Shown one piece after another: positions 13,699 through 15,728 of a stretch of DNA of 64,000 nt (position 1 is the stretch's first letter; each line of letters starts with the position of its first letter). Made by a program: the position numbers and the translations under genes. The notes beneath the pieces were generated by a model. That model did no database searches. It saw only the letters and a program-made list of their open reading frames with translations, and was not told the origin of the DNA. This DNA is from Escherichia coli (GTDB taxonomy: Bacteria > Pseudomonadota > Gammaproteobacteria > Enterobacterales > Enterobacteriaceae), in the NCBI RefSeq assembly GCF_045037415.1, contig NZ_CP173438.1. One strand, 5' to 3'.

Positions 13699-14727
13699 AT
13701 GAATAAGACAGTTTTACATATTAACAGTAATATAACCACAGATGAAATTAGTTTATTGTTGCAGGCATCCAAGTATAAATATATTCATTTTGAAATAATT
13801 GGGAAAGGTGATTCATGTAAAAATTTAATTGAGTTTTCATATCATGATTATAATTTAAAAAAACAATTAATTGCTTTAACTAATGCTGGTTTTATGTCGT
13901 ACGTTCATCGTGGAAATGTAACTTCATTGGTTCACTTTGATGAGATAAAAAACCTCTGGATTCCAGTAAAAGAAAAAAAGTTTTCTATTAATTCTGATGG
14001 GATTGTATATACGTTACAACGGGCTGCATGCAAAATAAATGAAAAGCTACTGATTGTTTTCTCTCAGATGCCAATTGAACCATATTCTGCAAGCTTGTAC
14101 AGATATTTTGCAAAAAACTTTTCTACAATTGATAAATATATTGGAAAAAATGTTTCTATATTAAGAGTGGCTGATATCGGAGGAATTACTGGCTCATTTT
14201 ACTTAAATACAAATGCATTACCAACCAATGCTGATAAAATTAAAAGCCTTATATTAGAAGTTATTGAACAATGTCAAATAAAATCAGATGATGTCGTACT
14301 TTATGGATGCTCAAAAGGAGGTACGGCAGCCGTTTATCATGGATTAACTAATAATTATAAAATAGTAGCGGTGGATCCTATATTAAATGATGAACATTAT
14401 ATAAATAATAAAAATGATCTACATTTAATAGAGGGAGTTTTTCCTCAGCCAAAGGAAGAGTTATTCAAAAAAGTCATTGATGACTATTTAATAAACTATA
14501 AGGGGAATATGTCTTATTTTATTGTTTCACAAAATTCGGAACAGTACAAATATATTATGGATATTATAAATCCAATCATCACTTATTCAACAGTTGCAAA
14601 TAGCATCAATGATAAAATTAAAAGCCATCCTGATGTTGGGCCACAATCAATTCATATGATTGTAGCAATGATTAATATGGCTCTTTCTGGAATAAAACTA
14701 TCTAACGGCATCTATGATTTTGTTTAA
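13699..14727 (+). CDS. Hypothetical region 2 protein, possible alpha/beta-hydrolase (G-C-S-K-G nucleophile-elbow-like motif)
   Basis: 342-aa ORF, AT-rich like the rest of region 2; VVLYGCSKGGTAAVYHG resembles a GxSxG serine-hydrolase elbow; otherwise unrecognised. Confidence 0.45.
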   Translation: MNKTVLHINSNITTDEISLLLQASKYKYIHFEIIGKGDSCKNLIEFSYHDYNLKKQLIALTNAGFMSYVHRGNVTSLVHFDEIKNLWIPVKEKKFSINSDGIVYTLQRAACKINEKLLIVFSQMPIEPYSASLYRYFAKNFSTIDKYIGKNVSILRVADIGGITGSFYLNTNALPTNADKIKSLILEVIEQCQIKSDDVVLYGCSKGGTAAVYHGLTNNYKIVAVDPILNDEHYINNKNDLHLIEGVFPQPKEELFKKVIDDYLINYKGNMSYFIVSQNSEQYKYIMDIINPIITYSTVANSINDKIKSHPDVGPQSIHMIVAMINMALSGIKLSNGIYDFV

Positions 14728-14732
14728 ATAAT

Positions 14733-15728
14733 ATGGCTTTAAGATTAAATTCTGTTTTTATACTTGCGGTGATTTGCAGTATCCAAATTTGTAGCGCTGC
14801 TATTTTAAGTAAAAGCTATTCACATAATGATATTCATATCACTCTGCCATTATTATTTAATGAGTACGATGATGTACTCAGTCAGTATGACGGGGCAAAA
14901 TATTTATACCCTAGTTCATTTGCTCTTGATGATGATAATAATATTTATATTCAGTATATTTTTGAGCCAAAACAAAAGGATAATATATTAGTTTGTTATA
15001 ATAAAAAAGGAAATTACCTTGGGTACTATAAGATACCAAGTGGTGGGCGAGGCGGGGCTGGCGAAGGTTTGGCTATTATACAAGACTATAATGGGTTTAA
15101 TGTTGTATATGTCGTTTCGAATACGGGAACCTTGCAAAGATATAATATGGTGAGTAGCTTGTATGGTGACAGATTATTTAAGGAAAGAGATTTTTCAATT
15201 AATGCTTTTAACCAATTTTCGATGAGTCAAGACTATTGGCTTATTGAAGGTTATGAAAGCGAAAGAAGTATAAAGTATAGTAGAAATAGACTTGAACTAT
15301 ATTCAGTAAGTGGAGATTTATTAAGAGTAATTTATTTACAGAATAATTATTCTGGATATATTGTATCAGATGCGAGTCCTGATGCAAAGAATTATAATAA
15401 AAGACAAGGGATAGCTTTAGGTGATGGTTTTTTTGTTGCTAGTTATGGTGCCTTTTACTATTCCAAAATGGAAAGTACTTATAATACATATCAAGGCATT
15501 AGAGTTTTTGATTTTTCCGGAAAGCTTTTATCTGAAAAAATTTTCCATCCAAATGAAATGATGAATGTTCTCAAAAAAATGGGCTTAACAGTTTCTAGAA
15601 TTGAAAATGAGGGAGTGATAGTCAAGAATAATACTATTTACAGTATGTATATTTATAGTGATAGATACCATCATAAAACCTCCAGAAGTGAAGGGATCAT
15701 TATTCTACTGGATGAATTTACTCAATAA
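14733..15728 (+). CDS. Hypothetical secreted protein (N-terminal signal peptide), capsule region 2
   Basis: 331-aa ORF starting 6 bp after the preceding gene; hydrophobic N-terminus then Tyr/Asn/Gly-rich sequence; no family recognised. Confidence 0.45.
   Translation: MALRLNSVFILAVICSIQICSAAILSKSYSHNDIHITLPLLFNEYDDVLSQYDGAKYLYPSSFALDDDNNIYIQYIFEPKQKDNILVCYNKKGNYLGYYKIPSGGRGGAGEGLAIIQDYNGFNVVYVVSNTGTLQRYNMVSSLYGDRLFKERDFSINAFNQFSMSQDYWLIEGYESERSIKYSRNRLELYSVSGDLLRVIYLQNNYSGYIVSDASPDAKNYNKRQGIALGDGFFVASYGAFYYSKMESTYNTYQGIRVFDFSGKLLSEKIFHPNEMMNVLKKMGLTVSRIENEGVIVKNNTIYSMYIYSDRYHHKTSRSEGIIILLDEFTQ

Follow-up and report, generated by a model that had tools for sequence, protein, structure and literature searches.

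A putatively exported propeller of phage tail-spike type and a probable O-acetyltransferase at the distal end of the Escherichia coli K2 capsule cassette

What do the last two genes in the serotype-specific region of an Escherichia coli group 2 capsule locus contribute to the capsule? We addressed this question in a stretch of 64,000 nucleotides from contig NZ_CP173438.1 (RefSeq assembly GCF_045037415.1), referred to here as the window, which contains a complete E. coli group 2 kps locus. The region 2 block of this locus (positions 8084 to 15728; 7.6 kb) lies between kpsT and kpsS, has a GC content of ~30% compared with 46 to 55% in its flanks, and is made up of five genes, the last two of which are open reading frames (ORFs) that we call ORF1 and ORF2. 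The block is 100% identical in CFT073, ATCC 25922, NCTC86, and O2:K2 and O6:K2 strains and is therefore the K2 cassette, named ksl in CFT073; it is found in 140 of 5426 complete E. coli genomes. The K2 capsule is a teichoic-acid-like poly(galactosyl-glycerol-phosphate). An initial annotation of the window had described two adjacent plus-strand ORFs of 342 and 331 amino acids at the distal end of region 2 and had regarded them as possible accessory genes that modify or process the polymer, rather than as precursor or polymerase genes. Both ORFs are intact with the boundaries it gave, and the general idea holds. In our reading, ORF2 is a phage domain for engaging polyol-phosphate glycopolymers in a stand-alone, exported form, and ORF1 is likely to be the O-acetyltransferase of K2 galactose. 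The features of the two genes are as follows.

13699 to 14727, plus strand: ORF1 (CFT073 c3693), 342-amino-acid XcbB/CpsF-family protein with a predicted alpha/beta-hydrolase fold (NF033892, PDB, AlphaFold [AF2], Foldseek)
13973 to 13979, plus strand: A7 tract in ORF1, codons 92 to 94, hot spot for +/-1 frameshifts (sequence and PMC8849078)
14305 to 14319, plus strand: predicted nucleophile elbow of ORF1, G203-C-S205-K206-G207 (conservation, CsaC alignment)
14733 to 15728, plus strand: ORF2, 331 amino acids, putatively exported, predicted stand-alone five-bladed beta-propeller of the phage "platform"/tail-spike type
14733 to 14801, plus strand: signal-peptide-like N terminus of ORF2, residues 1 to 23, putative cleavage at CSA/A (heuristic, 14 orthologues)
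14844 to 15716, plus strand: predicted propeller domain of ORF2, residues 38 to 328 (DSSP of the model, conservation)

ORF2 starts after a spacing of 5 nucleotides from ORF1 and is listed as hypothetical in RefSeq. Its N terminus, MALRLNSVFILAVICSIQICSA/A, has one basic residue, a 16-residue hydrophobic stretch (12-amino-acid Kyte-Doolittle mean of the core, 2.75), and small residues at positions -3 and -1. All 14 orthologues examined have an equivalent N terminus that is not conserved in sequence, as expected of signal peptides. The structural model has a low-confidence helix at residues 2 to 19, and phage homologues align with ORF2 only from residue ~33 on. The signal peptide and the Tyr/Asn/Gly-rich body that had been noticed at the outset both hold up, the former as a heuristic assignment and the latter as 10.4% Tyr, 7.8% Asn, and 7.8% Gly in the mature protein, which also contains 10.1% Ser. 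A lipoprotein was considered and rejected, since no lipobox cysteine is conserved among the orthologues.

Searches with ORF2 alone gave no match in NCBIfam or among PDB sequences and nothing significant in Pfam (only a 17-residue SBBP match, E = 0.59), and a profile of the 13 orthologues against PDB sequences returned nothing usable. A model built from the orthologue alignment (pLDDT 84, pTM 0.84) has 20 strands by DSSP, which form five four-stranded blades; the predicted fold is that of a five-bladed propeller closed by an N-terminal strand. The conserved polar residues of the propeller are E111, E172, R184, K223, Q225, R289, E291, and E293, and E111, R184, K223, Q225, E291, and E293 are 82 to 100% conserved in 21 stand-alone and 131 phage sequences. 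Residue E111, the pair K223/Q225, and the pair E291/E293 are placed at the first strand of blades 2, 4, and 5, respectively, or immediately ahead of it, and R184 is inside blade 3. It is usual for the first strand of a propeller blade to be the innermost and to line the mouth of the central channel. Among propeller enzymes, we considered and set aside a GH43/GH32/GH68-type glycosidase, as ORF2 could not be assigned to these families by sequence match and their Asp/Glu catalytic residues.

The relatives of ORF2 are largely phage proteins. A word-indexed search found only 13 relatives, at 38 to 57% identity, whereas the profile of 13 ORF2 orthologues, compared with 1.8 billion representative proteins, gave 256 matches with E values down to 1e-85. 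Once the capsule-locus orthologues and some other short proteins are set aside, the matches are proteins of 600 to 1400 amino acids in which the ORF2-like part of ~300 residues is central, and nine of the long matches, scanned with PHROGs, are phage tail spikes or fibers with varied N-terminal anchors and C-terminal stalk or chaperone parts. Sequence homology extends to the HHU-22 receptor-binding protein (E = 1.7e-46), U8 gp17 (E = 1.9e-64), and the EK8 fiber (E = 5e-67). ORF2 itself matches phrog_22693 (E = 8e-17), and tblastn against phage genomes returned 38 records: Kayfunavirus at up to 36.8% identity (E = 6e-40), other coliphages at ~30%, Erwinia phage UCB24, and about 20 Staphylococcus/Mammaliicoccus phages. 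AFDB50 contributes further tail proteins of prophages in E. coli, Bibersteinia trehalosi, Hafnia, Bacillus, and Staphylococcus. This homology supports the earlier suggestion that the secreted protein is depolymerase-like, in that its relatives appear to be phage tail-spike or receptor-binding domains.

Three phage proteins place the domain in context. In gp17 of phage U8 (L007:2248-5103), the ORF2-type domain (residues 247 to 552) is preceded by a T7-type anchor and Tail_spike_N and followed by a stalk and a Peptidase_S74 chaperone, which is the slot that the catalytic propeller occupies in endosialidases. In the receptor-binding protein of the Staphylococcus siphophage HHU-22, the domain (residues 108 to 433) follows a stem that is 28% identical to that of phi11 Gp45, which puts it at the position of the Gp45 platform propeller. 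The ligand of Gp45 is glycosylated wall teichoic acid, and the central cavity of the Gp45 propeller is the proposed binding site (PMC4876445, PMC4901313); the link between ORF2 and Gp45 is made by the fold and by the HHU-22 bridge. In the central spike gp113 of the Sciuriunavirus SscM-1 (L008:1663-4485), the N-terminal 415 amino acids are 54 to 55% identical to the Kayvirus central spike and the domain is in the distal part. The matching distal part of phage 812 carries a saccharide-binding knob and a GlpQ/GDPD-like "petal" that is a proposed teichoic acid degrader (bioRxiv 10.1101/2024.09.19.613683).

The database names of two of these proteins are not supported. U8 gp17 is named "endo-N-acetylneuraminidase," and only the S74 chaperone and the stalk are common to it and endosialidases; ORF2 as an endosialidase was accordingly rejected as an annotation carried over from the phage stalk and chaperone part. 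SscM-1 gp113 is named "glycerophosphoryl diester phosphodiesterase," and no Pfam GDPD domain was found in it. The GDPD name on phrog_22693 appears to come from the N-terminal part that is common to Kayvirus central spikes. ORF2 as a GDPD was rejected too, because its model is all-beta rather than a TIM barrel and no Pfam GDPD match was obtained.

Compared with the Staphylococcus phage platform propellers (phi11 Gp45, 80alpha gp61, the P68 fiber, and NF5 Gp17), ORF2 lacks the stem and tower, is of monomer size, stands alone behind a signal-peptide-like segment, and is encoded in a capsule locus rather than in a prophage or virion. It thus resembles the central domain of phage receptor-binding proteins in sequence, though not when compared with Gp45 itself, and departs from the architecture of a trimeric virion protein with a stem or anchor and a tower or stalk. 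Among the coliphage spikes of endosialidase type, U8 gp17 of Kayfunavirus and E. coli prophage fibers carry the ORF2-type domain in the slot of the catalytic propeller.

ORF2 is tied to its cassette by gene order. In seven of seven contexts of ORF2 orthologues (the window and loci from other assemblies), the polymerase, XcbB/CpsF, and ORF2-like genes follow each other in this order, and the full order (transporter genes, cytidylyltransferase, LicD/TPR gene, polymerase, XcbB/CpsF gene, ORF2-like gene, and convergent kpsS) is likewise kept in all seven. Pantoea, Rahnella, and Atlantibacter are among the source names of the ORF2 orthologues and the co-located ORF1 homologues. One cassette, from a Rahnella sp., has an additional gene in the gap between the ORF2-like gene and kpsS (L023:5165-6157, minus strand) for a 330-amino-acid right-handed beta-helix protein (Pfam Beta_helix/NosD), which brings a second fold reminiscent of tail spikes or lyases into that locus. 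A more distant stand-alone homologue of 338 amino acids is encoded on a metagenome contig (L016:8001-9017) outside any capsule locus, near ABC-transporter, MacB-like, and Fic genes; exported single-domain propellers are therefore not confined to K2-type cassettes.

The closest phage relative of ORF2 (P0071) is an 883-amino-acid E. coli prophage tail fiber whose gene adjoins lysis genes. To relate it to the capsule type, the DNA of ORF2 and of the prophage domain was concatenated and searched in the 5426 complete E. coli genomes. This query matched 158 places in 142 genomes; K2 accounts for 140 places, which leaves 18 genomes with the prophage domain. The K2 cassette is present in 16 of these 18, against a chance expectation of 0.46 (Fisher P = 2e-24), and the genomes with both features represent the two K2 allele types and include human, cattle, and dog strains. 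As a control, the domain of P0070 type (from a P2-like prophage) added no matches and is absent from the complete E. coli genomes. The 883-residue fiber gene (L021:5479-8130 in E. coli B19695; L018:8001-10652) lies just upstream of a holin/GH19 lysis cassette. The L021 prophage is inserted beside yfgI/yfgH, and of the complete genomes that have the fiber, only B19695 and one other are not K2.

A neighbor-joining tree of 156 domain sequences, calculated with no bootstrap, groups the 14 capsule-locus proteins in a single clade, and this clade is embedded in a series of phage and prophage clades. The GC content of ORF2 (30.9%) is like that of the cassette, compared with 43 to 45% in the coliphage homologues, and this cassette-like composition suggests that capture of the phage domain is old. 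ORF2 is under purifying selection, as judged by a dN/dS of 0.21 against the divergent F11 allele. One tentative account, to which we give somewhat less than an even chance, is that a phage receptor-binding or depolymerase domain was captured once by an ancestral K2-type cassette, acquired a signal peptide, and was then kept by the host.

ORF1 is the better annotated of the two proteins. It matches NCBIfam NF033892 at 301.3 bits (cutoff, 125), with residues 43 to 330 covering positions 1 to 290 of the 291-position profile, and this match places it in the XcbB/CpsF family. It also matches the PDB series 9hvz/9hwh/9hwi/9i87 (E = 3.5e-53; ~38% identity to the 9hvz chain over 330 residues), one entry of which was deposited as "bacterial protein _ ACoA," by name an acetyl-CoA complex. 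None of the homologues collected here is more than 50% identical to this solved protein. The initial annotation had called both genes uncharacterized and neither recognizable from sequence; the former is fair for ORF2, which is unannotated, but ORF1 is annotated as XcbB/CpsF with a solved homologue and is readily recognized by these two matches. It lies in the serotype-specific region of an ABC-transporter capsule locus, at the same position as in the other loci examined. Members of the family (Neisseria meningitidis CsxB/CshD, Actinobacillus pleuropneumoniae Cps7E, and the 9hvz series) are like ORF1 in length and in position, after a TagF-like polymerase, and the literature searched held no published biochemical function for any XcbB/CpsF member.

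The AF2 model of ORF1 (pLDDT 92.7) has Gap2/Asp2 (6oyc_B) as its top Foldseek match, followed by esterases and S-formylglutathione hydrolases; 9hvz was not among the returns from the PDB library. The G-C-S-K-G sequence that had been picked out as a GxSxG-like elbow spans residues 203 to 207, and G203, S205, K206, and G207 are invariant across 27 family members, as are D226, D240, and H310. Residue S205 aligns with the catalytic Ser114 (G-S-S114-K-G) of CsaC/SacC, the triad of which is S114/H228/D198 (PMC7501274). Model, Foldseek, and alignment together point to an alpha/beta-hydrolase fold with a serine in a G-x-S-x-G elbow, and S205, H310, and D226 or D240 are triad candidates from sequence conservation. 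The fold is that of CsaC (SacC), the capsule O-acetyltransferase of N. meningitidis serogroup A, and of Asp2/Gap2 of the accessory Sec system, both of which act on glycans; CsaC takes the acetyl group from an acetyl-CoA donor (PMC7501274). Compared with these proteins, ORF1 has an extra N-terminal domain of ~110 residues, and its sequence links to CsaC/SacC (E = 0.013) and Asp2/Gap2 (E = 0.0023 to 0.12) are marginal. ORF1 has no signal peptide and is therefore predicted to be cytoplasmic, where acetyl-CoA is at hand. Thus, of the proposal that the 342-residue protein is a serine hydrolase, the fold stands, but the evidence points to a cytoplasmic, acetyl-CoA-dependent O-acetyltransferase, and the O-acetyl editing that had been suggested for the secreted protein falls to ORF1 instead.

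Natural variation bears on this role. According to a 2026 survey of E. coli capsule loci, K2a and K2ab differ in galactose acetylation, and a single inserted base disrupts the locus's "putative acetyltransferase" in the reference strain for K2a, so the acetyltransferase role of ORF1 is already proposed there and is not new here (PMC13171606). We found no second acetyltransferase candidate in region 2, although K2ab is O-acetylated. Among the complete genomes, ORF1 is knocked out by an 11-bp duplication in one strain and by an IS1 insertion in another, and ORF2 is intact in both. The A7 tract at 13973 to 13979 is the site of the c3693 Lys94fs/Phe95fs mutations, which are +/-1 frameshifts found in CFT073 mutants selected with phage MLP3 (PMC8849078). 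From these knockouts, in nature and under phage MLP3, ORF1 is a dispensable modification gene that is often switched off, and slipped-strand events at the A7 tract may turn K2 O-acetylation on and off (K2a/K2ab). The dN/dS of ORF1 against the divergent F11 allele is 0.15. Pseudogenes without phenotype in otherwise identical loci had been named as a finding that would speak against a role of the two genes in the capsule: they do occur for ORF1, with a K2a versus K2ab phenotype, and ORF2 is intact in all loci examined. The strain with the duplication, the blood isolate E. coli 4621 (L012, 1-1240), has it at the equivalent of window position 13944, and its annotation gives, in place of the 3801-bp polymerase gene upstream, a "glycosyltransferase" of 2496 bp, which suggests that its K2 locus is decaying. 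Its ORF2 is the intact WP_001208051.1, which is also the accession of the copy in strain p4A; the K2 blocks of p4A and the window are 100% identical.

How might the two proteins work on the K2 polymer? ORF1 would be a cytoplasmic acyltransferase, probably using Ser205, His310, and an Asp (D226 or D240), that moves the acetyl group from acetyl-CoA to the galactose of the finished or growing polymer; with active ORF1, the capsule would be K2ab, and with ORF1 lost, K2a. Since phage domains of the ORF2 type engage polyol-phosphate glycopolymers and the cassette makes one, ORF2 most likely recognizes the K2 polymer. It would be exported through its Sec-type signal peptide and would bind the polymer in a conserved central pocket composed of E111, R184, K223, Q225, E291, and E293. 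Cleavage is the mechanism that we favor: ORF2 would depolymerize or trim the cell's own capsule polymer, either to remove material trapped in the periplasm or to control how long the chains become and how they are released, in the manner of AlgL, BcsZ, and PslG in other polysaccharide operons. We regard action of ORF2 on the K2 polymer outside the cytoplasm as fairly probable and, given such action, cleavage as somewhat more likely than pure binding. For the combination of an ORF1 acetyltransferase with an ORF2 that acts on exported polymer, the chances seem to us evenly balanced.

Exopolysaccharide operons provide parallels in their exported polymer-processing enzymes, namely AlgL, BcsZ, PslG, PelA, and PgaB, and in PgdS/CapD for poly-gamma-glutamate. 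Like AlgL, BcsZ, PslG, PelA, and PgaB, ORF2 is operon encoded, probably exported, and predicted to act on the product of its own operon; in contrast, these enzymes have unrelated folds and belong to synthase- or Wzy-dependent systems. We know of no such periplasmic processing enzyme for ABC-transporter (group 2) capsules.

Several observations favor cleavage. Capsule-specific podophages normally need a depolymerase, and in podophage spikes the ORF2-type domain occupies an endosialidase-like slot. K2 is itself a barrier to phages (PMC12488582). In the SscM-1 spike, it sits distally, where phage 812 has the knob and the GDPD-like petal, and its acidic/basic cluster is conserved across hosts with different sugars. 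Alternatively, ORF2 may be a noncatalytic lectin, a domesticated phage receptor-binding domain that coats or organizes the K2 capsule. An attractive form of this idea is receptor masking, in which exported ORF2 would occupy the epitope needed by K2-specific tail spikes and so reduce phage adsorption. The characterized structural relatives of ORF2 are binders, recombinant Gp45 in soluble form stops phi11 from adsorbing, with an effect that depends on the dose (PMC4876445; PMC4901313), and the K2 capsule is both a barrier to and a receptor for phages (PMC12488582). Moreover, ORF2 is a bare propeller with neither a trimerizing stem nor a stalk, is nested within phage clades, and has as its closest relatives prophage tail spikes found almost only in K2 genomes. 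However, it is not obvious how a Sec substrate would get from the periplasm to the cell surface, binding by a monomeric propeller would be much weaker than by a trimeric spike, and strict retention of the acidic cluster across different glycans (Staphylococcus wall teichoic acid versus K2) is more like a catalytic or backbone-phosphate site. On balance, we think a lectin rather unlikely. We give still less credence to ORF2 as a biosynthetic or assembly factor, either an export chaperone or adaptor or a transferase for linking or editing after export, with a likeness to phage proteins that is one of fold only. The similarity is at the level of sequence (profile E down to 1e-85; 30 to 37% identity) and not of fold alone. 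Loci for the same backbone (A. pleuropneumoniae cps and N. meningitidis H cshA-D) are listed with no such gene, and ORF2 would therefore not be needed for making the polymer (PMC3647402, PMC11666461). A transferase would also find neither an energy source nor an activated donor in the periplasm.

For ORF1, the alternative to an O-acetyltransferase is an esterase (a de-O-acetylase or other serine hydrolase) or a noncatalytic part of the polymerase complex. Besides Gap2, the closest folds are those of esterases and S-formylglutathione hydrolases, the sequence link to CsaC is weak, and the XcbB/CpsF homologues of N. meningitidis X and H and, still in 2024, of A. pleuropneumoniae serovar 7 are given as "unknown" (PMC3647402, PMC11666461). 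We nevertheless judge this alternative to be unlikely, given the deposition of a solved homologue with acetyl-CoA, the O-acetylation of K2ab with only one candidate gene in region 2, the predicted cytoplasmic location with access to acetyl-CoA, and the frameshift in the putative acetyltransferase ORF of the K2a reference strain (PMC13171606).

Other points weigh against the reading of ORF1 as an acetyltransferase and ORF2 as a protein acting on exported polymer. The path of group 2 polymers across the envelope is believed to run within a KpsMT-KpsE-KpsD conduit; exposure of the polymer in the periplasm is therefore doubtful, and a periplasmic protein may not meet this substrate. The signal peptide of ORF2 was assigned heuristically, and the central pocket is deduced from strand positions in the model. 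ORF2 falls into no catalytic family (no GDPD or GH match in Pfam and nothing in NCBIfam), the structurally closest characterized proteins (phi11 Gp45 and the P68 fiber) are known only as binders, and Gp45 was not recruited by three local profile rounds over the 156 domain sequences. The literature searched contained no enzymatic or binding data for ORF2 or close relatives, and no publication on the 9hvz series was found there by PDB code or by the XcbB and CsxB names. The K2/prophage statistic ignores clonal descent and O type, so the association could reflect lineage or O antigen instead. Upstream of neither ORF1 nor ORF2 did we see a clear Shine-Dalgarno sequence. Finally, the polymer of the locus that encodes the ORF1 homologue CsxB (N. 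meningitidis X) is not known to be O-acetylated; the XcbB/CpsF family may therefore not consist uniformly of acetyltransferases.

The function of ORF2 matters beyond this locus. The literature searched held no account of an ORF2-type domain in a capsule locus and no K2 depolymerase. If catalytic, ORF2 would be an endogenous depolymerase, the first of an ABC-transporter (group 2) capsule, and the first characterized member of a new family of propeller hydrolases with polyol-phosphate polymers of teichoic-acid type as substrates; the K2 depolymerase of coliphages would thereby be identified as well. Active ORF2 or its phage relatives could serve directly as K2 depolymerases or detection reagents. 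If not catalytic, it would be the host's own imitation of a phage receptor-binding protein, masking or editing the receptor that phages use. A role of ORF2 on K2 polymer would mean that group 2 loci can carry their own cutter or binder. It would also assign a function to a widespread, unannotated phage tail-spike domain, which links the teichoic-acid-like capsules of Gram-negative bacteria with recognition of wall teichoic acid in Gram-positive bacteria. ORF1, for its part, probably sets the K2a/K2ab antigenic form. Among extraintestinal pathogenic E. coli, K2 is one of the most frequent capsule types (CFT073, ATCC 25922, and some ST131 strains), and it is a candidate target for vaccines and phage therapy.

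The remaining genes of the locus to which the text refers are as follows.

6580 to 7416, plus strand: kpsM
7413 to 8084, plus strand: kpsT
8084 to 8491, plus strand: TagD/CpsB-type glycerol-3-phosphate cytidylyltransferase-like gene, first of K2 region 2 (NCBIfam TIGR01518)
8507 to 9742, plus strand: tetratricopeptide repeat (TPR) and LicD-like phosphotransferase gene of CpsC/CshB type (NCBIfam and syntenic Pfam)
9796 to 13596, plus strand: 1266-amino-acid capsule polymerase, TPR plus TagF-like glycerophosphotransferase plus GT4 (NCBIfam, Pfam)
15890 to 17128, minus strand: kpsS, convergent with the region 2 genes
17163 to 19190, minus strand: kpsC; the other region 1 genes are also on the minus strand

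The first product of region 2 has TIGR01518 as its top NCBIfam match, at 127.6 bits, which does not reach the curated cutoff of 165. Its RefSeq name, pantoate--beta-alanine ligase, is probably wrong; a cytidylyltransferase fits a CDP-glycerol-dependent capsule. The second product has a Mf1/LicD-type NCBIfam match at residues 214 to 259, PF04991 (LicD) is faint in its syntenic orthologues, and a role for CpsC is described in PMC11666461. The polymerase has a TarF-like NCBIfam match at residues 502 to 858 and GT4 families at about 1013 to 1252, and Pfam Glyphos_transf and Glycos_transf_1 are present in its orthologues. Related polymerases of A. pleuropneumoniae and N. meningitidis H/Z make poly(galactosyl-glycerol-phosphate), which is teichoic-acid-like (PMC8262930, PMC3647402).

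ORF1 or ORF2 as the supplier of UDP-galactofuranose for the galactofuranose residues of the K2 polymer was considered and rejected, as neither resembles a flavin mutase. A promoter and terminator scan around ORF1 and ORF2 found sites no more numerous than in shuffled sequence. In the 102-nucleotide gap between the polymerase gene and ORF1, positions 13638 to 13663 form a perfect 26-nucleotide palindrome, TTGTAAGGAGGTATACCTCCTTACAA, with no T-run after it; this element could be an intercistronic hairpin involved in mRNA processing or stability, or a protein-binding site.

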